Below, piece by piece: positions 2,077-37,347 of a stretch of DNA of 64,000 bases. Made by a program: the position numbers and the translations under genes. Where the stretch lies: IMG/VR virus record IMGVR_UViG_3300045972_000146, positions 1-64,000 of that record; one strand, given 5' to 3'. The notes under the pieces are model-generated. The model had not been told where the DNA came from and did not search any database. It worked only from the letters and a program-made list of their open reading frames with translations. The stretch comes from a virus. How positions within the stretch are numbered: position 1 is the first letter of the stretch; each line of letters opens with the position of its first letter.

Positions 2077-5000
2077 TTAATTCCAAGTAAAATTAATTGA
2101 CTTATCTCCAAGATCTTCTAACGACGATGAGCTTCCATAATATTCTTTTGAGAATAATGGCATGTCAAATAATTGCATTTTCTTAGAGTCTTGATTTTTT
2201 TTCTTTACATGCATGTTATGCAGTTGTTGTTTGTATATTAAAACCATCATCATAGCTATAACCCTATCGAAGTTTCCTTTATCATTGTATTGTATTAGTT
2301 CCTCTAACAGAGGTTCTGAAAATATAGTAGTAAGACATTTCTTGCCAGGAGCGAATTCCTCATTAAGATATTCCTTTATAAGCCCTTCTCCGTAGTCTTT
2401 TATGGGGACATTCATGTGAATTCCCTTTCTTCTTTGTACAGTGGACTTCCCTATGATGTCATTAATGATATCTGGCTGGTCGGCTAATAAGTAATCACAA
2501 TGCTTCTGTGTGAAGTATGGAAATATACCTTTTCGTTCATTTTCATATAGAAGTCTAGCATTATAATACATCAAAAGCTTTCTTACGTTCTCATAATAAT
2601 CCTCGGCAGTATCTGGCCTCCCGGTATATTCAGCCACAAGTATATCATAATACTCTTCAAAGTTTTGGAATCTCTTATATATGAATGTAGATCCAAGAGA
2701 GTTTGTTCCAGCCTTATCGTGATCATATGGGTCACATCCTGCGATATATAGTTGATTAGATGTATCCGTATTTGGGTGTTCCCATATAACTATACTTCCC
2801 TCATGTCTATCATCTCTATGTAATGGATAATTAGTTATATCTCCGCCCTTCTTTATTTGCCAGGACAGACTGCCATTTACCCAATTTAGATCTCCAACCT
2901 GCTTATGGTTTTGCAGCTTCTTATTAGTTCTTAGTGCCGCTAACTGCATCATTAATTCCTTCTTTGGAAATATATTGCCAGTAAGTTCTAATACTGCCTC
3001 TTGTGGCGTAATTGGGTTCTCTGCAATATATCTATCAATTGCTCTGGAATCAGATGCTCCATCAATAACTTTTTGTCGTTCTGACATAGCATATTCAGTA
3101 GCCTTCTCTCTTAGACTGTTACCGAATTTATCCATATACATCCTTGCTCCCTTTTCGTTGAGCACAGACATATTCGCATATACAGGAACAAAGAATCCAC
3201 AGTAGTTTCCATCTGCACCTTCATCCCATATATTGGAGAATGATTTTATGTTGTATCCAGACGGCTTATAGAATAATTCCTTTAATCCGTCAAATCTACT
3301 ACCTTCATCGCCTCCAGTACCAAATGCAATCATCAATCCATATGCAACACCATCCTCCTCTACAGAAGGTCTAGCTATTTGCCATGCCTGAAGTATGTCT
3401 TTAAATGATCCAGCTTCTTCCCATAGTATAAGTTTACCACGTTTACCACGAGCTCTATTGGGGTCATTCTTTAGCGTAACGCCGATTATCTCAGACTTAT
3501 ACCCTATCTCAGTTTCATTGCCCAGTTCATCCTTAACCTTAATACCAGACTTTCTATGCATCTTAGTGGTAACAGTTCTCTTTTTGCTCCAAGCAGTATG
3601 TTCATCTATAAAGTCCATTAGATCCCACGCCTTACTTAAAAGACCATCTCTTACAAGGAATTCGGTCTCAGCAGCAATTGCATATGATTTAGAGTTCTCT
3701 ATATGATAGTAGTTTCTAGCAAGCATAGATGCTCCTTTGAATGAGTTGTGGGTTGGAATAAAATCTTTTGTAAGATACATATGATTCTCATTATCTACAC
3801 ATATACATCTTTGTTTTTCCACTCTGTCTAACTTCACTATTTCTGTTATAGCTATTCTGTTTAAATTATTTTTTCTCGACCTTATATTTTTTAATTTTCT
3901 AGGTAGTCTAAATATATTTTTATCAGTAGTTATTGTTATTGCCCAAGAATCTCTAGTATTTGAAAAATTATTATTTCCAAAGTTTACATTGCTTCTTCCA
4001 CTAATCTTATTACTTTTTCTACATCTAATACCAAGACTTCTTGCAATAAATAAAAAATCATCTACTAATCTTTCTGATGTCGATACAAAAGAGCACGAAC
4101 CATTTGAATAAAAACCAGAAGTGGAACTTCCGTCTGTATCCATAAGCCCCTGAATTAAACTAAATCTATCTTCTATAGATGCGTATTTATAGTCATCCGG
4201 AATAAATTTATCGAAAGAATGAACGTTTAGACCATATTCTTTTACAGTTTTTATTAATTCGTTTTTATTGGAATTAGACTTAATTATACACTTAAATTTT
4301 TCATTATTGCATCTCTTTACATCATATTCTGATCCAAGAATTCTTTGCAACTCATCTAAAATAAAATCATCATCGGTATAAAAATATATAGAACTTCTAG
4401 TCAACCCACCATCCCCAATTAATACCCCAAGAATATATGGATTAATTAAAAGTTCGTCCCTACTATCAAATTTTACTGGATTTATTTCTGGCAATTTATA
4501 TCTATAACTAACCTTTCCTAATTTCCCCTGCTTTAATTTTCTTTCAGAATATTCTTTTGTTGTTAATATATGTATCTTATTTTTATAATAAGTGGTCCAT
4601 AAATGATTTTCTCCGCAAGTTACGCTTCTACCGTCTTGGAGCCTAACTTCGTACACGTCTTTTTCTCCTTGCTCTACTATTTCTCCAACCCTAATTGGAG
4701 ATCCATTTGGATTCATAACCCAATCCCCAACACCCAAAGAACCCATTTCCACGTATCCATTAGGAGTTAATACCATCTCAGAATAAGGCTGTTCGTATCC
4801 AGCTCCACGTTTCTTTAGAACTACCATATGCTTACCCTCATCCTCGGCTTCTTGTATAGCAGAAAAGTAGTAATAATCATAGTCATAGAAATCCGGGAAC
4901 TCCCTAGTCTTCTCTCTGCGCTTCTTTATGTCTCCGAATCTATCTTTGTACTCATATTCAACAAGTCTTAATATAGGACAGTAGTTTAAGTAGAAGTAAT

Positions 5001-5190
5001 TATATCCACTTATATAATCTCCATCTGGCGCAGTAAAACCATTAATACATCTCTCTTGCTCGGTGTTCCAATACTCAAAGTATTCTGTTGTTCCTGAGGG
5101 TGCAAAACAGTAAACACCATGCTTCTGAAAGGAGATGCACGGTGTTCTAAATTTGTCGGTATTTAATATTCTTTTATTAAAATTGACCAT
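2077..5190 (-). CDS. terL: Terminase large subunit with intein
   Basis: ISGYNYFYLNYCPI; Walker A region LKKRGAGY|SFKGAS split by an intein; Walker B LILWEEAG; FGTGG; nuclease motifs AGCDPYD and GNFDRV. Confidence 0.95.
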   Translation of the reverse strand: MVNFNKRILNTDKFRTPCISFQKHGVYCFAPSGTTEYFEYWNTEQERCINGFTAPDGDYISGYNYFYLNYCPILRLVEYEYKDRFGDIKKRREKTREFPDFYDYDYYYFSAIQEAEDEGKHMVVLKKRGAGYEQPYSEMVLTPNGYVEMGSLGVGDWVMNPNGSPIRVGEIVEQGEKDVYEVRLQDGRSVTCGENHLWTTYYKNKIHILTTKEYSERKLKQGKLGKVSYRYKLPEINPVKFDSRDELLINPYILGVLIGDGGLTRSSIYFYTDDDFILDELQRILGSEYDVKRCNNEKFKCIIKSNSNKNELIKTVKEYGLNVHSFDKFIPDDYKYASIEDRFSLIQGLMDTDGSSTSGFYSNGSCSFVSTSERLVDDFLFIARSLGIRCRKSNKISGRSNVNFGNNNFSNTRDSWAITITTDKNIFRLPRKLKNIRSRKNNLNRIAITEIVKLDRVEKQRCICVDNENHMYLTKDFIPTHNSFKGASMLARNYYHIENSKSYAIAAETEFLVRDGLLSKAWDLMDFIDEHTAWSKKRTVTTKMHRKSGIKVKDELGNETEIGYKSEIIGVTLKNDPNRARGKRGKLILWEEAGSFKDILQAWQIARPSVEEDGVAYGLMIAFGTGGDEGSRFDGLKELFYKPSGYNIKSFSNIWDEGADGNYCGFFVPVYANMSVLNEKGARMYMDKFGNSLREKATEYAMSERQKVIDGASDSRAIDRYIAENPITPQEAVLELTGNIFPKKELMMQLAALRTNKKLQNHKQVGDLNWVNGSLSWQIKKGGDITNYPLHRDDRHEGSIVIWEHPNTDTSNQLYIAGCDPYDHDKAGTNSLGSTFIYKRFQNFEEYYDILVAEYTGRPDTAEDYYENVRKLLMYYNARLLYENERKGIFPYFTQKHCDYLLADQPDIINDIIGKSTVQRRKGIHMNVPIKDYGEGLIKEYLNEEFAPGKKCLTTIFSEPLLEELIQYNDKGNFDRVIAMMMVLIYKQQLHNMHVKKKNQDSKKMQLFDMPLFSKEYYGSSSSLEDLGDKSINFTWN
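3745..4794 (-). mobile_element. 350-aa intein with LAGLIDADG homing endonuclease, class-3-like
   Basis: Starts EQPYSEMVLTPNG; block B VTCGENHLW; LAGLIDADG motifs LGVLIGDG and IQGLMDTDG; block F/G KQRCICVDNENHMYLTKDFIPTHN followed by Ser+1. Confidence 0.92.
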
Positions 5191-5205
5191 TCAACTGTAT
5201 TGTTA

Positions 5206-5427
5206 TTAGCTTCGTAACCATTTATTAAATTTGGCAATTTGACGTTTTAACCAACCAATTTTCTTTGCAGGAACTGTTTTAATCTCTACGATTGCTTCTA
5301 CCGGAATATTAATTTGCTCTACTACTTGTTTTGGTTTTTTATGATAACGTTTCTTGTTATTTGTTTTCTTTACTTGCGCAACAGCATCAGTACTTACTAC
5401 CGGAGTTACTTTTTTATTGTCTTCCAT
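5206..5427 (-). CDS. Hypothetical basic protein
   Basis: 73-aa ORF, co-oriented in the late operon. Confidence 0.6.
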   Translation of the reverse strand: MEDNKKVTPVVSTDAVAQVKKTNNKKRYHKKPKQVVEQINIPVEAIVEIKTVPAKKIGWLKRQIAKFNKWLRS

Positions 5428-8542: not shown

Positions 8543-8875
8543 TATTTCTTTACTGGTTTTTTCTTAGTTCCACATTTGTTTTTCATGTCTGTTCTTTTAG
8601 TTTTTTCCAAGTATATACTAATCCAAATACATACTTTCTAATTATTGTTAATTTAAATCCATCTATAATATCATTAATCTTATAATCTTTATCTGAGTTA
8701 TTTACATGATCCTCTTTAATTGGCATCATCTCTTCGTCTATATAAAAATTGATATCTGGATTAATCATCTAATTTCTTTAAAAAATTTGTTCTCTTTGGA
8801 CATATCTTTCGCCCTTCTATACATTCTTTTGCTCTTTCAGCGCTACCTTTACATGATGAGTTGCATATTGCGTAA

Positions 8876-9136
8876 TTAAACGCTCTCATTACCATCTCTT
8901 TTGAGTAAAGCCTTTTCTCTTGCTTTGCCATATAAAAATCTTTTGTTTCCTTTTAATCTGTTCTTTAATTTGATTTTAAATAGGTATATAAACATTAATG
9001 TTTTTTCGTCATCAGGATCTGATATTCTTCTTGATGCAAATATGAAAGGATGATTACATATCATAGAAACAATGTTCTTATGTAAGCCGTGCTTCTTTGC
9101 TAAAACAGAATATATGTCTGAGTTTTTTGATACCAT
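8876..9136 (-). CDS. HU/IHF-like DNA-binding protein
   Basis: Small basic protein, DIYSVLAKKHGLHKNIVSMIC; IHF-like genes are typical of crAss late modules. Confidence 0.5.
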   Translation of the reverse strand: MVSKNSDIYSVLAKKHGLHKNIVSMICNHPFIFASRRISDPDDEKTLMFIYLFKIKLKNRLKGNKRFLYGKAREKALLKRDGNESV

Positions 9137-9295
9137 GGTCTTTCCACTAATATAATAGTGCGTTTATAATTTCGTCTTGGGTTATTCCTTCTAAACAAAT
9201 TCCCAAGTATATTAGAATTATCATACAACTTAAATCCGGAATCGTCTCTTCTTGAGAAGAGTCCTCTGAATGTTGGATAATCACTAGGAGTAAAT

Positions 9296-9664
9296 CTATT
9301 CCTCATTTTCTTTTATTTTTAATATCATTGTTATTTGAACTACTTTGTTTCCGATTAAAATTGGCACTAAAGCTTTGTTCATTACTAAGAACTGCCCTTC
9401 TCTTATGAAGATACCTTTCTCTCTGAACATCTTTATATATCGGCATAGATTATCTTTTGTTATAGAAGTAATCTTCGTAATTAGTTTTCTATTCGCAGTA
9501 GAATCTATGCTCTCTATAGTCTTGCCTCTTCTACCTAATTGAATGTCTAGAAATAAAGATAGTAATTCTAACTCTCTATCAGTTAAGTCTAGCAGTCCAT
9601 TTAGACTACGTAAAAACTCATATCCAAGCTTATCTAATGATACTGTTTTTACTAATTTGTTCAT
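9296..9664 (-). CDS. Winged-helix DNA-binding protein (RepL-like)
   Basis: LTDRELELL ... ITKDNLCRYIKMFREKGIF HTH-like pattern. Confidence 0.55.
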   Translation of the reverse strand: MNKLVKTVSLDKLGYEFLRSLNGLLDLTDRELELLSLFLDIQLGRRGKTIESIDSTANRKLITKITSITKDNLCRYIKMFREKGIFIREGQFLVMNKALVPILIGNKVVQITMILKIKENEE

Positions 9665-9666
9665 TG

Positions 9667-10242
9667 TTATGCTACTAATTTCTTAAGTAAGTCGATCATA
9701 TTAGTATAAACTGTTAGTGCTTCATCAGCCCATTCAACTCGTTCTCCACTAATAAATCTGTCTTCAAGTTCTTCTTTATATTGAAGTTCTTTCTCAGTAT
9801 ATTCTTTTAGCTTCTCATCAACCCTATTATAGAGCCTGTCTAAATTTTCTTTTAGATTAGAAGTACATTTCATCTCTGAGGCCAAGTCGTCTTTAAGTGC
9901 AGAGATTACCTTTTTAAGTTCATAGTTTTCTTTGTTGTGAAACATTACTGATTCGCTTAATTCATCTATCTGCTCTTCTAGCTTTACTGCGTAATCTCCT
10001 AGTTTAAATTTCTTTCTAGGTTCTGGATCTTCAAAGTATTCAATTGGTTTGAATTCATCGATATTCAATAATGATGCAGATAAAGATATAAATCTTTGTG
10101 CAGTATATGGCACCCCTAATAGATCTCCAGCCACTTCGATGTCTAATTCAAAGTTACTATTACTATCATTTCTTGTTAGTACATCACCAACTTCTAATCC
10201 AGTTAGTGGCTTTACTACTTCTATTGTTTTAATATTATTCAT
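9667..10242 (-). CDS. Hypothetical coiled-coil protein
   Basis: 191-aa ORF with heptad-rich C-terminal half. Confidence 0.65.
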   Translation of the reverse strand: MNNIKTIEVVKPLTGLEVGDVLTRNDSNSNFELDIEVAGDLLGVPYTAQRFISLSASLLNIDEFKPIEYFEDPEPRKKFKLGDYAVKLEEQIDELSESVMFHNKENYELKKVISALKDDLASEMKCTSNLKENLDRLYNRVDEKLKEYTEKELQYKEELEDRFISGERVEWADEALTVYTNMIDLLKKLVA

Positions 10243-10877: not shown

Positions 10878-11530
10878 TAGATATTCTTCTTTCCAAGTAT
10901 ATCAAATGGTTCAACTAATGCCGAATCCTTAAATAAATCAAAGTCTGTCATTCTGTTCTTTGGGAATAAGATAACATCTCCTAAATTTATTTGCATACCA
11001 AACCAAGTATTATCAACCGATTTAGCAGTTGATGGTAATCCAATTACTACGCCCGTTCTATGTAATGATTCTGTTTCTATCTGTTTAATAGTCATTTGCA
11101 TAATTGGTTCACCTTCTTCGTCCTTTTCTCCTGAATCCTCTGGCACTGTCAATGTTTTATAAACCTTTTCTATTTCTAGCGGTTTAATTATAATATGTTT
11201 TGAAAAGTCGTAACCTATTTTATCAGCTACTACATTTGCCAATGTGGCATTGTCCACGTTTCCTACATTTAGTCCTTGAACATCTTTTTCTTCTATCATT
11301 GTTTCTATTGTTATTATGTCCTCATCATCATAGAGTAAATCCATAATGGAGTCGACGTTGTTTTTCATTTTGTTTAGTAAATCAAAAGGGAGACCGCTTT
11401 TATACTCCTCATTTCTCTTGAGCATATTAATAAGAAAGTCTTCTTCTGGTTCTTTTGAGTCTATTTCTTCAAATCCCCAACTATATATATGACCAGAATA
11501 CTCATGGCCATCTGGTATTATATTAGTCAT
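10877..11530 (-). CDS. GroES-like domain protein with acidic N-terminal extension
   Basis: IIIKPL...TGVVIGLP...INLGDVILF...DILG resembles the GroES strand pattern. Confidence 0.55.
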   Translation of the reverse strand: MTNIIPDGHEYSGHIYSWGFEEIDSKEPEEDFLINMLKRNEEYKSGLPFDLLNKMKNNVDSIMDLLYDDEDIITIETMIEEKDVQGLNVGNVDNATLANVVADKIGYDFSKHIIIKPLEIEKVYKTLTVPEDSGEKDEEGEPIMQMTIKQIETESLHRTGVVIGLPSTAKSVDNTWFGMQINLGDVILFPKNRMTDFDLFKDSALVEPFDILGKKNI

Positions 11531-17241: not shown

Positions 17242-17508
17242 ATGGCAAGTACACTGTATTTCAACGACAGAACTGAAAAGTTCTTAATAAAGAATAAGAT
17301 TAAAACTAGATTTGTAAATAATACAAAAAGAGGTAAATCTGAAACTGAATTAAATAAGTTCATAGAGCGTGCAAAATTACTATCACCTCGCGATGTGATT
17401 GCACATGCATTTACATGGATTGAAGACCCTGAATATCATTTAAACCCAAACTTTTGGTTATATATGTGTAACAGGGCAAAGCGCTGGGAAGAAGAAGGTA
17501 AAATTTAA
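17242..17508 (+). CDS. Hypothetical protein
   Basis: 88-aa ORF. Confidence 0.65.
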   Translation: MASTLYFNDRTEKFLIKNKIKTRFVNNTKRGKSETELNKFIERAKLLSPRDVIAHAFTWIEDPEYHLNPNFWLYMCNRAKRWEEEGKI

Positions 17509-17525
17509 TCAACAAATCAATTGAA

Positions 17526-17885
17526 ATGAAAAAGTTCACCAACAAATCGTTTACAGTTCTCATGTATAACATGGTGAGCTGGGTAGTGCAACATAAAACA
17601 ATACCATATAAAATCAATATAGCAATAGAAGATTTGAATGGAACTGATATATATGTTGCGGAAGTGTATTACAAATCAAAACCTGAAGAGGAAATAGTAC
17701 TTGAAGAGTTTCCAACGAAATTCAATGAATATGCATCAATTGATGAGAAAGAAAGGAATCTGAAAAGAATATCCAATCAATATCCAGCAATTGAAGAGCA
17801 TATTGTGACTGATGAAATGGACCCGTTGACTGAGTGTGAGCGTAATTACACTAATCATTTAAAGGGAGTTCATAGTGAAAATTGA
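17526..17885 (+). CDS. Hypothetical protein
   Basis: 119-aa ORF. Confidence 0.65.
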   Translation: MKKFTNKSFTVLMYNMVSWVVQHKTIPYKINIAIEDLNGTDIYVAEVYYKSKPEEEIVLEEFPTKFNEYASIDEKERNLKRISNQYPAIEEHIVTDEMDPLTECERNYTNHLKGVHSEN

Positions 17886-17889
17886 TTAA

Positions 17890-19185
17890 AATAAAAAGCT
17901 TTAATTAGATTGCTGGTCACGGCTGACTTGGTTTGAACAATAGACCAAAGAAAATGTGTTGTCATGGTGATAATTAAAGCTTTTGTTAACATGTCATTTC
18001 TGCTTCCAAAGGGCAGACTATATTAAATAAGGTAACAAGTGTAAATAAACTGTAGATATACATAAAAAAGCATGATTAGAATTATTTAATATAGAACATG
18101 GATGGGCAAAAAGGAGGGTTAAATCTGGTACTACATTTCAACCAGAGCCTGTGATAGGTATAGTAAATGCTAAAATACATGTAAGAAATTCTCATGTTAA
18201 TTACCGAACTTGAGTGATATCTATGGAAGTTTGACGCGGCTGACCAACAATGGCAATAAGAGATTGGCTGAGGATTCCTAACGGGCCTAGGCCAAATTCG
18301 ATGTGTAGCGAGCTATGCGGATGGGTATTATAATGGAGGTTGAATGGGTATCTACCCTAAAGATTAACACTATCAAGAGCTAAAGTAGAAATACAATGCG
18401 CCAAATCCTTGACAATTTTCCTTGGCACAAGTGGAAAATAAATGGCTGTCTTTAAACAGAAGTTAAGAGCCACAGTTCATTAGATGACTTAGAATGAACA
18501 AAAGACTATTCGACTAATCAAAAACCTTTCGTAGGGAAATGATAGAATTGAATATCCGCTAACGTCGGACAAGCCCGCAGTTTTGCGAAAGCAATACAAA
18601 AGGACCGTATAAGCCGGATTGTAACTGAGCAATAATTCAGTTGATTGGTTAAGAACCAAATTAAGTTTACCATTGGAACCATTAGAACCCATTCTTGACG
18701 CTGGTAAATGTATTTGTTAAGGCGTAGAGCAAATTGATTGGCTAAGGCTGGCCCATTTTCTAGAGATAGCTTCGGGTGAAACTAGATGCTTGATTAAGAA
18801 TCACAACCTCGCTCAAGGATAATTAGCAAAAATTCCTATTCTAACTATTTTTCGCGAGATAGAAAGAATAGTCCGTGACGTACGAAGAGCGGATACGAAA
18901 CCTCATACAATGCCTCGTATGACGAATCTAAAACAAGAAGGCTAAAAATACAAATGCGAGGAGGGTGTAGTCACATGAGATGGCTCGAGGTAGGAAATGC
19001 CGCAAAGAGAGCGGGTGTAGTATTTGTATGTGAAAAGCAAGCATTGGAATCCAGATGACTGGACCCTTACCGTTAGATGAAACCGTAAGTGGAATATCTA
19101 GACAGCCGGTATAATTAAAATGCATATAACGAGCGAGTAATATCCCCATGGGGACGCCATTCAAATGTTATATGCATTTTTTAAC
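17890..19185 (+). ncRNA. Putative giant structured ncRNA A (~1.1-1.3 kb)
   Basis: No plus-strand ORF of 60 aa or more over 1.45 kb; many local and long-range helices (see findings); followed by a tRNA-like element. Confidence 0.65.
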
Positions 19186-19187
19186 AC

Positions 19188-19270
19188 GCCAGTATCATAC
19201 AAGATGAGAGCCTTGTAATGACCACGGAAAACTCTACGGAGTCTAAGGAGTTCGAATCTCCTAACTGGCA
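19188..19270 (+). ncRNA. tRNA-like element
   Basis: Acceptor GCCAGT/ACTGGC and canonical T-arm AGGAG-TTCGAAT-CTCCT, but no standard D or anticodon arms. Confidence 0.6.
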
Positions 19271-19335
19271 CAGATTTATTAAACAATTAACAGAATTTTA
19301 TACACAGTTTTTAACAACAATTAATTATCAAAATT

Positions 19336-19602
19336 ATGAGTAAAGTAACAGTATTTGTATCATTATTGATGAGTATGAACTTTGCAGCAAATGCAAAAGT
19401 ATCAAAGTCATTGAAACGTATTGAAAAAGGTGAAAAAATTGATGATGCTATTCTTGCAGCTGAAGCTAAAACTTCAAAAGCATACAAAGAAGATGCAGCA
19501 TTTGCAGCCAAAGTGGATGCTATTATTGCCGGTAAGGTTGAAAAACCAAAAGCAGAACCAGCAAAAACAACTACAAATCGCAGTGGAGAGCCACGCCGAT
19601 AA
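19336..19602 (+). CDS. Ala/Lys-rich hypothetical protein
   Basis: 88-aa ORF with A-rich leader. Confidence 0.65.
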   Translation: MSKVTVFVSLLMSMNFAANAKVSKSLKRIEKGEKIDDAILAAEAKTSKAYKEDAAFAAKVDAIIAGKVEKPKAEPAKTTTNRSGEPRR

Positions 19603-19687
19603 GCAGTAAGATTCATTTTATTAATAATAAGCCTCTGTAGTTCATATAGAGGCTTATTATATTGTTTAATCAATAAACTAAAACAAA

Positions 19688-20938
19688 ATGTCAACACAAT
19701 GGCAAAAATCATGCGTTAAGGCACTTGTAACAAGTCCAACAGCATTCCGGTTATTTAGAGCCGAACAAAGAAATATTAAACTATTAGACCAATATATGAA
19801 TAAGATATGGTCATATAGATACGAAAAGACATTAACGTCTGCTATTCCAATTATTATTGGGGCAGGTAAATCGCCAATAACATTGTTTCTTTTAGAAGTT
19901 AAAAGAGTTTTAGAAGAAACAAAAGGAAAATTTGATTCTGCAAGAGGACATGTAAATTCAATTTACGTAAATGGAGATGATTTTGTCTCATTTATAGAAT
20001 CTAAACGATTTAACAATCTAAGCAGGATTAGGAGTACGTCATATGAAGAATTAATGGGCGTGTATATATCTGACAAAAGAGATAATTACGAACATTATAC
20101 AATAAAAAACAATACTGAATCTAAAAGCATTTTATTAACAATTGTTGATTTAATGAAAAATAGAATCAGTCCCGAAAAAAGACAGGAGGGGGTATATTTT
20201 AGAAGCCTTTATCTAAAAAGCGATACTACATTGATTGATAAATTTATTAGCGAAAATGAAAAACAAATTGATGAAGCCATTAAATTATCAATAAAACAAC
20301 AAAAATCAATAAAACAACATATTAAGAAACAATCCATATTTCAAGGATTAAATGTTGGAATAGAAATTGAATATGATGGTTGTAATTGTCAGGACATGGA
20401 GTCTGATTTGCTTAAATTAAAAGCAGTATCATTTCATTCTGGTTGGGATGGTTCACAAATGAATGGAGACCAAATTGGTAGTAGATTAAGAGAGAATAGA
20501 TTACGTCTTGAATCTCATAAATCATTACCAGCTTTATATTTGTTATTAAAATCAATGATTGATAAAGGATGTACATTAACACAGAATAGTGGAATGCATT
20601 ATCACGTTGATTGTAGATATAAAGATAAATTCAAAAAAGCTGAAAAAACATCAAGTTATCGTGATTTATTTAAAACAACCACAAGTGAAGATTGGAAATG
20701 TATATTCAATATATATGAATTCAGTAAATCTCATTCAACTGATGATTTTTGTGGTCAATTTAAAATTAAATCAGAATTTGAAACAATCGAGTGGAGAATG
20801 GGTAGCCAAACCCTTAACTACAGTAAAATTACCTTGCAAATACTTGTTGCCATTCATATGACAGAGGTGTTTACAAATAACAGTAAACCAAATACTTCTT
20901 ACTTAAAAATGTTAAGTGAGATTTATTCAGAAATTTAG
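19688..20938 (+). CDS. Putative amidoligase (COOH-NH2 ligase family) domain protein
   Basis: VGIEIEY, SGMHYHVD and TIEWR motifs. Confidence 0.7.
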   Translation: MSTQWQKSCVKALVTSPTAFRLFRAEQRNIKLLDQYMNKIWSYRYEKTLTSAIPIIIGAGKSPITLFLLEVKRVLEETKGKFDSARGHVNSIYVNGDDFVSFIESKRFNNLSRIRSTSYEELMGVYISDKRDNYEHYTIKNNTESKSILLTIVDLMKNRISPEKRQEGVYFRSLYLKSDTTLIDKFISENEKQIDEAIKLSIKQQKSIKQHIKKQSIFQGLNVGIEIEYDGCNCQDMESDLLKLKAVSFHSGWDGSQMNGDQIGSRLRENRLRLESHKSLPALYLLLKSMIDKGCTLTQNSGMHYHVDCRYKDKFKKAEKTSSYRDLFKTTTSEDWKCIFNIYEFSKSHSTDDFCGQFKIKSEFETIEWRMGSQTLNYSKITLQILVAIHMTEVFTNNSKPNTSYLKMLSEIYSEI

Positions 20939-21345
20939 TTTAATTAATAGACAAAAAAACCCTAATTTAGATTCAAGAGGGGCAAGATGCGATGACGATT
21001 GCTGCAATAGTGCAATATGTAGCCCGCTGAGCAAAACTATTGTTTTTAAATTAGTTTAAAACAACTATGGTAGGTTGTAGATGATTAGTGGTATAAAATG
21101 GACAAGATTAGACTGTTTTATATGTTATTAGTACCAATAAATAACAACATTAACATTATGCAGAGGGGCGCCTCATTAGTGCATCAAGTTTCTATCTCTA
21201 GCAATTTGTCAAGCAAAGATAGATATAGTTCATTCATGCGCAATTAAATGAATTATAGTCAAATTAATTAAATTAATCCAATATTCACGAAAGGAGGAGC
21301 GAAGCCTATTGTCGGAGTATTGCAAAATCATAGTAATCTATGGGA

Positions 21346-21419
21346 AGTTTATTAGCTCAGTTGGTTAGAGCGTCTGATTGTGGTTCAGAAGGTCGCGGGT
21401 TCGAGCCCCACATAAACTA
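21346..21419 (+). tRNA. tRNA-His(GTG), atypical
   Basis: Cloverleaf: AGTTTAT/ATAAACT, D-arm GCTC/GAGC, anticodon loop TT-GTG-GT, T-loop TTCGAGC. Confidence 0.85.
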
Positions 21420-21456
21420 CAATTTTATTATTATTAACAATTTAATCATTATCAAG

Positions 21457-21816
21457 ATGACAAGATTAACAAAAAACACATTTAAAATGATTACAGGAAT
21501 CTTAATGATATTCTTACTAATGTTTATCATTGGGAATCTTTGGTACGAGCAGGGATTAAAAGAAGGTCGAATAAATGAATCATTTGATCAACTACGCAAG
21601 CCAGATATGTTTGTAAGAAGAAATGTAGAAATACAGCCTTCAAACTACATATTCTATGACAATACGTATGGTCAGGTTATTTCAGTTTACAGTGATTTGA
21701 GAGAAGTAGAGGCAAAGTGCTTAGTTAGATATTTATATCCAAAAGAATGTGAATTAACATTCATTAAGCGAATACCAATACCAATTATTAATCAAGAACT
21801 AACTGATAAGAACTAG
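21457..21816 (+). CDS. Membrane-anchored hypothetical protein
   Basis: True start probably 21457 (ATCAAG-ATG); the longer ORF call overlaps the tRNA. Confidence 0.65.
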   Translation: MTRLTKNTFKMITGILMIFLLMFIIGNLWYEQGLKEGRINESFDQLRKPDMFVRRNVEIQPSNYIFYDNTYGQVISVYSDLREVEAKCLVRYLYPKECELTFIKRIPIPIINQELTDKN

Positions 21817-23335: not shown

Positions 23336-23506
23336 CTGTCGGGCACGTGAGCGAAAGCCGCGCGTTGTGTCCAATCGTCACCCGGCAGGGTTTTAAAACA
23401 TGGGTAGTGATACAGGGAAATTCGAGATCTCTCTGAGCGTCTATAGGCTTGGAAGGCCTACTACCCCCAATTATCAAAAATATTTACATTTAAAATCAAT
23501 TTAATT

Positions 23507-31760: not shown

Positions 31761-31885
31761 GAAGAATTCTCATAAATGTTAAATTGGACAGTTAAACGGG
31801 CTACGGCAGAACATTCCAATCAAGTAGGAACTTTCAGTGATTATCAAAAACAACATTATTTATCAAAAATAGGAGGAAACAAACA

Positions 31886-36597: not shown

Positions 36598-37347
36598 ATG
36601 AGCATACAATTGCCTACCATTAAAAGTGTACCAAAAGCCCTCAATCCAAGATTTTTAATCTTGTTTGGGAAGCCTAAGGTCGGTAAAACAACGCTGTTAT
36701 CCACATTGGATAATTGCCTAATTGTCGACCTTGAAGGAGGCTCTGAATTCCTCGAAGCAATGGCTGTTCAAGCCAGAAGTGTATCGGATTTAGGAGAGAT
36801 TGCAAATGCGATTAAACTCAAAACAAATGAAAGCGGCCAAAAGCCTTATAAATATATTGCAATAGATAATGCTACCAGACTAGAAGACATGTGTCTTCCT
36901 TATGCGGCTAGTCTATATAGAAAGAATCCTATAGCAAAGAACTGGACTGGAACTGACGTGAGAACGTTGGATAAAGGTGCAGGTTATCTTTACTTAAGGG
37001 AAGCTGTCAAAACAGTCATTGATCAATTTCGTGGACTAACAGATAATTTTATTCTGATAGGGCATACAAAAGACACAATGATTACTAAAGACGGCGAAGA
37101 ACTTTCCGAAATGGCAATAGATTTAGTAGGAAAATTGGGCGACATAGTTTGCGGAGAGGCAGATGCAGTTGGCTACGTATACAGAAAAACAAACGAAACA
37201 ATAGTATCTTTTGAGGGCGGATTAAATTCCGTAAGAGAGGCGAGAGCTCCTCACTTAAGAGGTAAAAAAGTAGTTATTGCTGACTCCGACAAGGATAATG
37301 CTATTACTACCTATTGGGATAGAATTTACTTACCAGAAAATTATTAA
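36598..37347 (+). CDS. AAA ATPase, Sak4-like recombination protein
   Basis: FGKPKVGKTT, VDLEGG, IAID, LIGH; adjacent to SSB. Confidence 0.8.
   Translation: MSIQLPTIKSVPKALNPRFLILFGKPKVGKTTLLSTLDNCLIVDLEGGSEFLEAMAVQARSVSDLGEIANAIKLKTNESGQKPYKYIAIDNATRLEDMCLPYAASLYRKNPIAKNWTGTDVRTLDKGAGYLYLREAVKTVIDQFRGLTDNFILIGHTKDTMITKDGEELSEMAIDLVGKLGDIVCGEADAVGYVYRKTNETIVSFEGGLNSVREARAPHLRGKKVVIADSDKDNAITTYWDRIYLPENY

Follow-up and report, generated by a model that had tools for sequence, protein, structure and literature searches.

A conserved non-coding island of unclassified RNA elements and a tRNA-like structure in an environmental crAss-like phage

The stretch 17886–19335 in the genome of an environmental crAss-like phage is a non-coding locus that combines new RNA families with a new tRNA-derived element, and it is of a kind known in crAss-like phages. 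The window analysed here comprises the first 64 kb of a 93,863-bp virus record of IMG/VR (IMGVR_UViG_3300045972_000146), which is complete and bears 127-bp direct terminal repeats; the phage DNA was recovered from a pond metagenome, and a relative is present in peat. From ~13.6 kb to 43 kb of the window every gene lies on the + strand, and the 416-aa protein encoded downstream of the locus is ~34–35% identical to proteins of the crAss-like phages cr114_1 and cr125_1 (Suoliviridae, Aurodevirus). On balance, we favour reading the locus as a modular island of phage non-coding RNAs on the + strand, which occupies the slot of RAGATH motifs and Hatchet ribozymes in related phages, is assembled from unclassified parts and uses tRNA-type punctuation. 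The crAss-like phages are among the most abundant phages known, and this locus bears on the role of their RNA islands with RAGATH motifs and Hatchet ribozymes.

The stretch contains no credible open reading frame (ORF), either in genetic code 11 or with TAG read as Gln, TGA as Trp or TAA as Gln. The longest ORF inside it in code 11 has 34 aa on the + strand, while the longest on the − strand have 78 and 67 aa. Six-frame comparison with the homologous stretches reveals in-frame stops conserved in all six frames, and the − strand ORFs of the window and of the relative L005 are unrelated as proteins. The conservation is therefore not that of a protein-coding sequence, and coding readings based on alternative codes, on the six frames or on the − strand ORFs were rejected. 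The preliminary description, made from the sequence of the window, had seen 1.4 kb without a credible ORF, which holds under four genetic codes and agrees with the conserved stops in relatives. The GC content of the stretch is 0.38–0.43, as compared with a genome mean of 0.346.

Additionally, the locus lies outside the known RNA families. Rfam 15 gave nothing at gathering scores and nothing at E ≤ 10 in 17500–19700, and a cmscan of the whole window at E ≤ 1 returned two tRNAs only. Hatchet, twister, hammerhead, pistol and RAGATH motifs were found neither in the window at E ≤ 1 nor in the region at E ≤ 10, and scans of the relatives L004, L005 and L007 gave no match to them either. No model of transfer-messenger RNA (tmRNA) reaches E ≤ 1 in the window. 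A group I or group II intron was rejected, since no Rfam intron model matches and the flanking ORFs are complete, separate genes in relatives; RF01998 (group-II-D1D4-1) gives only an 11-bit match elsewhere in the genome. A template of a diversity-generating retroelement (DGR) or an antisense role was likewise set aside, as the 93.9-kb genome holds no repeat or complement of the stretch beyond chance. The second RNA island of the same phage (29940–31885) has no detectable sequence in common with the island at 17886–19270, and promoters of the Bacteroidota type (TTTG...TAnnTTTG) are absent from the region. The elements of the locus and its downstream flank are as follows.

17894–17984, + strand: long hairpin with a perfect A/U-rich stem of 14 bp (14 of 14 pairs) and a 63-nt loop that holds an inner hairpin, followed by UUUUGUU.
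17999–18017, + strand: hairpin h0, with a 7-bp stem and the loop CCAAA, at the start of the stretch shared with L007.
18018–18094, + strand: hairpin h1, with a perfect 13-bp stem (13 of 13 pairs) and a 51-nt loop; folding z −3.24 jointly with h0.
18198–18345, + strand: module 1, a closed domain of 148 nt with one copy each in the window, L005 and L007.
18262–18746, + strand: three copies of the motif GATTGGYTRAG, at 18262, 18643 and 18736.
18346–18357, + strand: small hairpin GGGU-AUCU-ACCC, which reads GGGA-GAAA-UCCU in L005, one pair being changed on both sides.
18868–18960, + strand: ultraconserved core of 93 nt, with 92–98% identity to L005 in the windows of 18865–18944.
18871–18894, + strand: hairpin H, with a 6-bp stem and the invariant 12-nt loop GACGUACGAAGA.
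18948–19029, + strand: 10-bp helix (18948–18957/19020–19029) enclosing a variable insert of 62 nt (44 nt in L005).
19015–19047, + strand: invariant block of 33 nt, 100% identical in L005.
19117–19186, + strand: conserved terminator-like hairpin (outer stem of 14 bp, two internal loops, inner UCCC-YAUG-GGGA hairpin) and a trailing U6.
19188–19271, + strand: tRNA-like structure (TLS) with acceptor stem and T arm, lacking an anticodon arm and an encoded CCA.
19323–19602, + strand: leader AATTATCAAAATT-ATG and 88-aa ORF, the leader and start being conserved in all relatives.
19688–20938, + strand: 416-aa gene, which follows the 88-aa ORF.

Homologues were collected with a profile of the 416-aa protein, which yielded 28 IMG/VR loci; a locus search with a single protein found none. 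Three lineages (L005, L007 and L004) share sequence with the stretch 17886–19335; the loci L005, L006, L008, L033 and L035 are identical across the shared part and were counted as one. The RNA body is known from three lineages (the window phage, L005 and L007), and the TLS from these and L004. The homologue set is small, and the closest protein relatives (41–49% identity) lie outside it. Because a global three-way MAFFT alignment misplaces L007 beyond module 1, local alignments alone were used. The stretch has no blastn match among GenBank phages. In a scan of JGI metagenomes the module 1 pattern returned the L005 phage alone, whereas in IMG/VR two core patterns and the TLS pattern retrieved no lineage beyond those already known, and GTDB genomes gave no match to the TLS pattern. 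In a peat metagenome, short contigs of low depth match 17908–18027, 18642–18720 and 18849–18879 with 1–8 differences. The metagenome contigs confirm the L005-type phage and carry traces of closer relatives in the peat sample; since they match the window phage and one of them covers a piece absent from L005, at least one closer relative of this phage exists.

The genomic slot of the locus places it among the RNA islands of crAss-like phages. The RAGATH and Hatchet families are covered by Rfam and by the motif screen of Weinberg et al. 2017 (PMC5737381). Upstream of the homologous pair of small ORF and 416-aa gene, cr114_1, cr125_1 and many IMG/VR loci carry RAGATH-7 and then Hatchet. The slot of L009 holds RAGATH-6, RAGATH-7-assoc and two Hatchets, and that of L028 a Hatchet followed by a genuine tRNA-Leu(taa), which ends 49 nt before the ORF; further downstream, the relatives with such islands bear another Hatchet, RAGATH-9 and a permuted tmRNA. 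Since the same slot contains RAGATH, Hatchet or tRNA elements in relatives, the present island is the counterpart of this known kind. Like the Aurodevirus islands, it is ORF-free over ~0.9–1.5 kb directly upstream of the gene pair, belongs to the same + strand block with tRNAs, permuted tmRNA and sigma factor, and arrays several structured RNAs in a row, with an RNA-cutting element (predicted in our phage) last or near-last before the mRNA. The parts themselves are different: RAGATH-6, RAGATH-7, RAGATH-7-assoc, RAGATH-9 and Hatchet are unmatched here even at E ≤ 1–10, and the punctuation that Hatchet provides there would fall here to a tRNA-like fold, along with a hairpin and its U run. The only common sequence is the 12-mer TTTGTATGTGAA of the invariant 33-nt block, which recurs at a syntenic place in Aurodevirus loci, there in a hairpin loop and hence in a different structural setting. 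The environmental branch keeps an island in the same slot with every part replaced, and each lineage seems to have its own set of RNAs there.

The island is conserved far beyond its neighbours. The gap of L005 lies at the same position, measures 1392 nt and is flanked by homologous 119-aa and 88-aa genes. The neighbouring proteins of the window and L005 are 34% (119 aa), 52% (88 aa) and 31% (416 aa) identical; the RNA body is 65% identical over aligned columns and includes islands of 90–98% nucleotide identity, joined by linkers that barely align. The 93-nt core shows about two differences from L005: a single base is substituted in the interior, and an A run carries an indel of 1 nt; in addition, 18956 is G/A. 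Over ~1 kb of L007, module 1, a GATTGG hairpin and hairpin H succeed one another as in the window. The lineages also form a mosaic: two pieces are absent from L005, namely 17886–18187, which takes in the initial 190 nt of what the window and L007 have in common, and the internal 40 nt at 18625–18664, and 482 nt that hold a 57-aa ORF are inserted there between 19047 and 19126; L007 has four ORFs and a tRNA-Glu between body and TLS; L004 has the TLS alone in common, behind a different 1-kb ORF-free island. The inserted 57-aa ORF of L005 (~2760–2935) is Cys-rich (CxxC...C...CxC) and has its own A/T-rich leader before the terminal hairpin, part of whose 5' arm is repeated on either side of the insert (2545–2560 and 2963–2978). 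The ~1-kb island of L004 (5526–6530), located between a tRNA-Glu and the TLS, matches no Rfam family and bears a weak likeness to the L007 gap at 1365–1506.

Within the body, pairing is maintained locally by compensatory changes. Module 1 is built around a variable insert, which is enclosed by a 4-bp helix and an 11-bp helix (18214–18224/18321–18331); three G.U pairs of the latter are conserved. In the structure that RNAalifold derives from the three sequences themselves, 91.7% of cells are paired and 9 of the 32 pairs are changed on both sides, a result equalled by 0–1 of 500 shuffles. On the opposite strand the G.U pairs would turn into A.C, which identifies the + strand as the RNA strand of this module. 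The module 1 model (R2) finds three copies only, in 469 kb. A vague likeness of module 1 to RAGATH-7, amounting to a few short words in different order, gets no support from the covariance model and was dropped. Hairpin h0 folds alike in the window and L007, where one pair changes from U-A to A-U and another from C-G to U.G, and a peat contig bears it with 2 differences. The window, L005 and L007 have the same loop GACGUACGAAGA in hairpin H, although L007 differs in the stem, with two pairs changed on both sides (U-A to C-G and C-G to A-U) and one on one side; the loop may bear a likeness to the sarcin-ricin loop. The 10-bp helix 18948–18957/19020–19029 is retained in L005 with a change from G.U to A-U, and inside it the hairpin 19000–19014, with a purine-rich 7-nt loop, is kept in L005 on a wholly different stem, as read by eye from the sequences. 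With at most one mismatch, GATTGGYTRAG has 7 matches on both strands of the 64 kb, 3 of which fall within this 0.5 kb; the middle copy lies in a UUGGUU-AAG-AACCAA hairpin, of which 18 nt are identical in L007.

Two strong hairpins bound the body. The upstream one (17894–17984) directly follows the stop of the 119-aa ORF, folds with z −2.87, has no counterpart in L005 or L007 and probably terminates or stabilises the upstream mRNA. The downstream one (19117–19186) has z −4.40 and an interior that is the same in L005 but for one loop base. L004 carries a different hairpin and UUUU at this place, 6–8 nt before its TLS, and altogether a hairpin with a U run precedes the TLS at this distance in three of the four lineages.

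The TLS is a genuine tRNA-like structure, as the preliminary description had proposed for the element at 19188. The four lineages have 91.3% of cells paired, and among the 20 pairs 8 are changed on both sides, which none of 500 shuffles equals; controls slid along the sequence have 25–49% of cells paired. Like a canonical tRNA, the TLS has a 7-position acceptor stem closed by G1-C72 (6–7 bp, two covarying pairs; all four lineages have G1 and A73), a T arm whose stem has 3–5 bp and whose loop, UUCGAAU, is invariant, the discriminator A, and a D-loop-like GAKAGC. Unlike a canonical tRNA, it lacks the anticodon arm, and a single 9-bp arm with the conserved 8-nt loop AUGAKAGC replaces the D and anticodon arms. 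It further contains a conserved linker, CCAYGGA, and a small hairpin that two of the four lineages have and the others lack. The T arm shares 14 identical nt with the phage's own tRNA-Arg(tct), so the TLS is probably derived from a tRNA. ARAGORN does not call it, and RF00005 gives no match at E ≤ 10. The TLS model (R1) scores 75–88 bits on the element, which is single-copy in the genome; a weak match of the model at 36693–36760 (16.4 bits, E 0.14) may be due to chance. A pairing of the linker CCAYGGA with UCCGUG at 18873 was considered and rejected, being uncompensated in L007 as judged by eye. Bacterial tRNA mimics include the tRNA-like domain of tmRNA and the YrlA Y RNA (10.1101/312249); no Rfam tmRNA or Y-RNA model matches the TLS, and in contrast to tmRNA both of its acceptor strands lie within 84 nt.

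The position of the TLS connects it with the downstream gene. In all four lineages it stands 46–68 nt before the same small ORF, and in L007, where it lies ~2 kb downstream of the RNA body, the gene before it is an unrelated one of 122 aa. Because this position before the small ORF is kept in four lineages, the TLS is tied to the downstream mRNA and not to the end of the big RNA. The earlier proposal that processing of the TLS sets the 3' end of a big RNA is thus not supported: the terminator-like hairpin with its U6 (19117–19186) intervenes, the L007 TLS is ~2 kb away from the body, and L005 has a gene between body and hairpin. In its architecture, with an acceptor stem stacked on a T arm, a T loop, G+1 and the discriminator, the TLS possesses the features of a substrate of RNase P and RNase Z. 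Mitochondrial tRNA punctuation is an established use of tRNAs as processing signals. Another is the mascRNA of MALAT1, a tRNA-like 3'-end processing signal cut by RNase P (PMC8457004). As in these systems, the TLS puts an acceptor stem stacked on a T arm at the junction of a long non-coding RNA with the sequence after it, in the geometry that RNase P and RNase Z recognise, and cleavage is predicted here. It differs in being preceded by a terminator-like hairpin, and in that the L007 TLS follows a protein gene and so marks the 5' side of the downstream mRNA instead of the end of the big RNA.

From these elements we infer how the island may work. Its transcription would follow the + strand, along with that of the early or middle genes, through the upstream-gene hairpin (17894–17984), the body, the hairpin with U run (19117–19186) and the TLS (19188–19271), in this order. 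The body, ~1.1 kb in length (~17999–19110), would consist of conserved local modules and fast-evolving linkers, and most body transcripts would end at the hairpin with the U run. In RNA that reads through, host RNase P is predicted to cut at 19187/19188 and a tRNA 3' nuclease after A19270, and the two cuts would part the non-coding RNA from the 88-aa/416-aa mRNA; in relatives, this separation appears to fall to a Hatchet ribozyme or to a true tRNA-Leu. The body itself would most likely offer its invariant unpaired loops to a partner, either protein or RNA, as a platform for binding or as a decoy, a role in which excess folding stability would have no detectable part. The finding of a tRNA fold without an anticodon arm where relatives have a ribozyme or a true tRNA leads to a testable idea, namely that the element serves to cut a mixed precursor of RNA and mRNA. 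Moreover, the locus offers two or three new RNA families, and a nearly frozen core between phages with ~30%-identical proteins is a good candidate for biochemical study.

Several points weigh against this modular interpretation. Among sequencing runs, none of RNA was found to contain the stretch. The RNA body folds no better than shuffled sequences: measured against dinucleotide shuffles, z for the 931-nt core is −0.65 (+ strand) and −1.64 (− strand), and sliding 150-nt windows stay near 0 across 18185–19050, so that only 17951–18150 (−2.6), 19051–19250 (−4.0) and the TLS (−3.3) stand out. The covariation comes from few sequences, three lineages for the body and four for the TLS, and the changed pairs of module 1 were counted on the same three sequences from which its structure was derived. 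In the global three-way alignment, which has three sequences and misaligns L007, the covariation term is −0.99, near zero. The T stem of the TLS is weak in L005, L007 and L004, with 3–4 pairs. The near-identity of 18868–18960 could reflect recent exchange between phages instead of constraint, and with a strong hairpin and U run in front of it, the TLS could be seldom transcribed from upstream, in which case it would be no punctuation. Finally, an array of separate RNAs and one multi-domain RNA are indistinguishable here, because no known self-cleaving ribozyme lies between the modules.

The preliminary description had gone further and suggested a GOLLD/ROOL-like or new large RNA, with crossing helices that implied pseudoknots or alternative folds. 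A single new giant RNA of 0.9–1.2 kb, of the kind of GOLLD and ROOL, with one architecture and a 3' end made at the TLS, has in our view a modest chance of being right. The order and rough spacing of the anchors are kept over ~0.9–1.1 kb in three lineages, the homology to L005 is unbroken up to the terminal hairpin, and conserved cores with variable inserts are typical of large RNAs. GOLLD and ROOL are also large non-coding RNAs that adjoin tRNAs in phage genomes (PMC5737381), as this locus adjoins tRNA-type genes, but they differ in host range and phage group from the environmental crAss-like phage studied here. The proposed likeness to the 3' region of GOLLD found no support: at E ≤ 10 the covariance model of GOLLD (RF02032), for which 16 candidates were scored, matches nowhere in the 93.9-kb phage, nor does that of ROOL (RF03087), a local search of 17500–19700 included. 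The control genomes gave no match to the ROOL model either, so that this search lacks a positive control; the Rfam cmscans agree with its null result. What stands of the proposal is a conserved non-coding locus on the + strand outside Rfam; membership in GOLLD or ROOL and the single fold are not supported.

The pairing data tell against one giant fold as well. All eight helices named in the preliminary description are complementary exactly as given, and the three hairpins of 13–14 bp among them exceed chance: perfect helices of ≥12 and ≥13 bp yield 8 and 5 k-mer pairs, as opposed to 0.12 and 0.01 in shuffles. For 8-mers, 34 pairs were observed and 18.7 expected; as ~20 of the 34 fall inside the three long hairpins, the long-range helices of 8–9 bp occur at chance frequency. 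Two of the four long-range helices are lost in L005 and one is partly kept. Specifically, 18504/18866 keeps 6 of 8 pairs, while no compensating partner is found for 18209/18809 (alignment read by eye) or 18444/19100 (by script); for 18342/18687, and for part of 18209/18809, local helices with better support stand in competition. Among the other helices, 19117–19130/19167–19180 is retained in L005 with one bulge and one mismatch, and the place of 18018–18030/18082–18094 is taken in L007 by a shorter hairpin of different sequence. The crossing helices are thus of the number expected by chance and mostly not kept in relatives. A candidate helix closing the body, 18191–18198/~19040–19047 (the positions converted from alignment columns), is invariant in L005; in L007 it was judged by eye to be uncompensated, although the automatic three-way alignment scores it differently. 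In all, the comparisons with L005 and L007 gave no support for a helix closing the whole body or for crossing long-range helices; local elements alone covary, and no large fold is supported by thermodynamics or covariation. The preliminary description had itself made the giant fold depend on a folding score distinct from that of shuffled controls, and the energy of the core equals that of shuffles. Furthermore, L005 does without the first 190 nt and the 40-nt piece and tolerates a gene inserted before the hairpin, and the L007 TLS lies 2 kb off, behind protein genes.

It is unlikely, though conceivable, that the body represents a new class of large phage RNA, in which the 93-nt core with GACGUACGAAGA is the active or recognition centre and the TLS a functional RNA of its own. 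If so, the core might be, for example, a new ribozyme or a site mimicking a conserved RNA of the host, and the TLS, more than a cutting signal, might undergo processing, receive a CCA end and perhaps serve the neighbouring glutamine-synthetase-like ligase. Somewhat less likely still is a cis-acting leader, in which the TLS, perhaps with the hairpin, acts as a 5' UTR (untranslated region) device that controls expression or stability of the 88-aa/416-aa mRNA, or as a cofactor of the 416-aa protein, the RNA body being a separate matter. The constant distance of 46–68 nt to the small ORF in four of four lineages, whatever precedes, and the terminator-like hairpin directly before the TLS in three of four fit such a device; but at least 24 other loci have the small-ORF/416-aa pair and no TLS, no alternative terminator/antiterminator pairing emerged, and it is by the acceptor stem and T arm that tRNA-processing enzymes recognise their substrates, which suits processing better than sensing. 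A role at the DNA level, as a replication origin, recombination hot spot or protein-binding regulatory region, is very unlikely. The long perfect A/T-rich inverted repeats at 17894–18094, the repeated 11-mer and the mosaic of insertions and deletions between relatives would agree with it. However, the compensatory changes and conserved G.U pairs are strand-specific signals of RNA, and the cumulative GC skew turns at ~12 kb and ~42 kb, where the transcribed strand switches, and not here; nor does a tRNA-like fold have a rationale in DNA, and the slot is occupied by known RNAs in relatives. Finally, that the locus is a decaying remnant without function, made of a tRNA pseudogene and eroded genes, is scarcely credible. 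The missing anticodon arm, the T stem that is weak in some lineages and the poorly conserved linkers might suggest decay, yet islands of 90–98% identity adjoin proteins of 31–34% identity, the stems covary, and the loops of the TLS and of hairpin H are invariant across lineages.

Beyond the modular island that we favour, the neighbourhood shows some further features. The 88-aa ORF (19336–19602) begins like a signal peptide, ending in ANA, and with 52% identity in L005 it is the best-conserved protein of the neighbourhood. Each of the three non-coding islands of the window is followed by a variant of AATTATCAAAA(A/T)TA (19323–19338, 23469–23484 and 31858–31873), placed immediately ahead of the next ORF. 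All relatives conserve the exact form where it precedes the small ORF, and the variants may be a shared leader or restart signal. Neither Pfam nor PHROG gives an assignment for the 416-aa protein, which is conserved. Its AlphaFold model (pLDDT 78.6) aligns repeatedly to glutamine synthetases and YbdK-type carboxylate-amine ligases with middling scores (VIA-align Z 6–8; Foldseek E about 0.02), and its invariant motifs N.GIEIE, SG.H.H.D and F.T.EWRM would suit a ligase of the glutamine-synthetase/YbdK type, which is only a lead. A tRNA-His and a tRNA-Arg lie 2–7 kb downstream of the island; a 158-aa ORF (21340–21816) starts inside the tRNA-His (21346–21420), and its 5' end is probably spurious.

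In the Aurodevirus genomes, the RefSeq records of cr125_1 (NC_055900, L002) and cr114_1 (NC_055897, L003) annotate the tmRNA only, while gaps at 4921–5315 and 8682–10209 of the former and at 4928–5314 and 8665–10190 of the latter contain RAGATH-7, two Hatchets and RAGATH-9, with matches far above the Rfam thresholds. In the relative L016, a tRNA-His (11074–11146) is nested within the permuted tmRNA gene (10973–11415), which suggests that tRNA processing splits the two tmRNA pieces.

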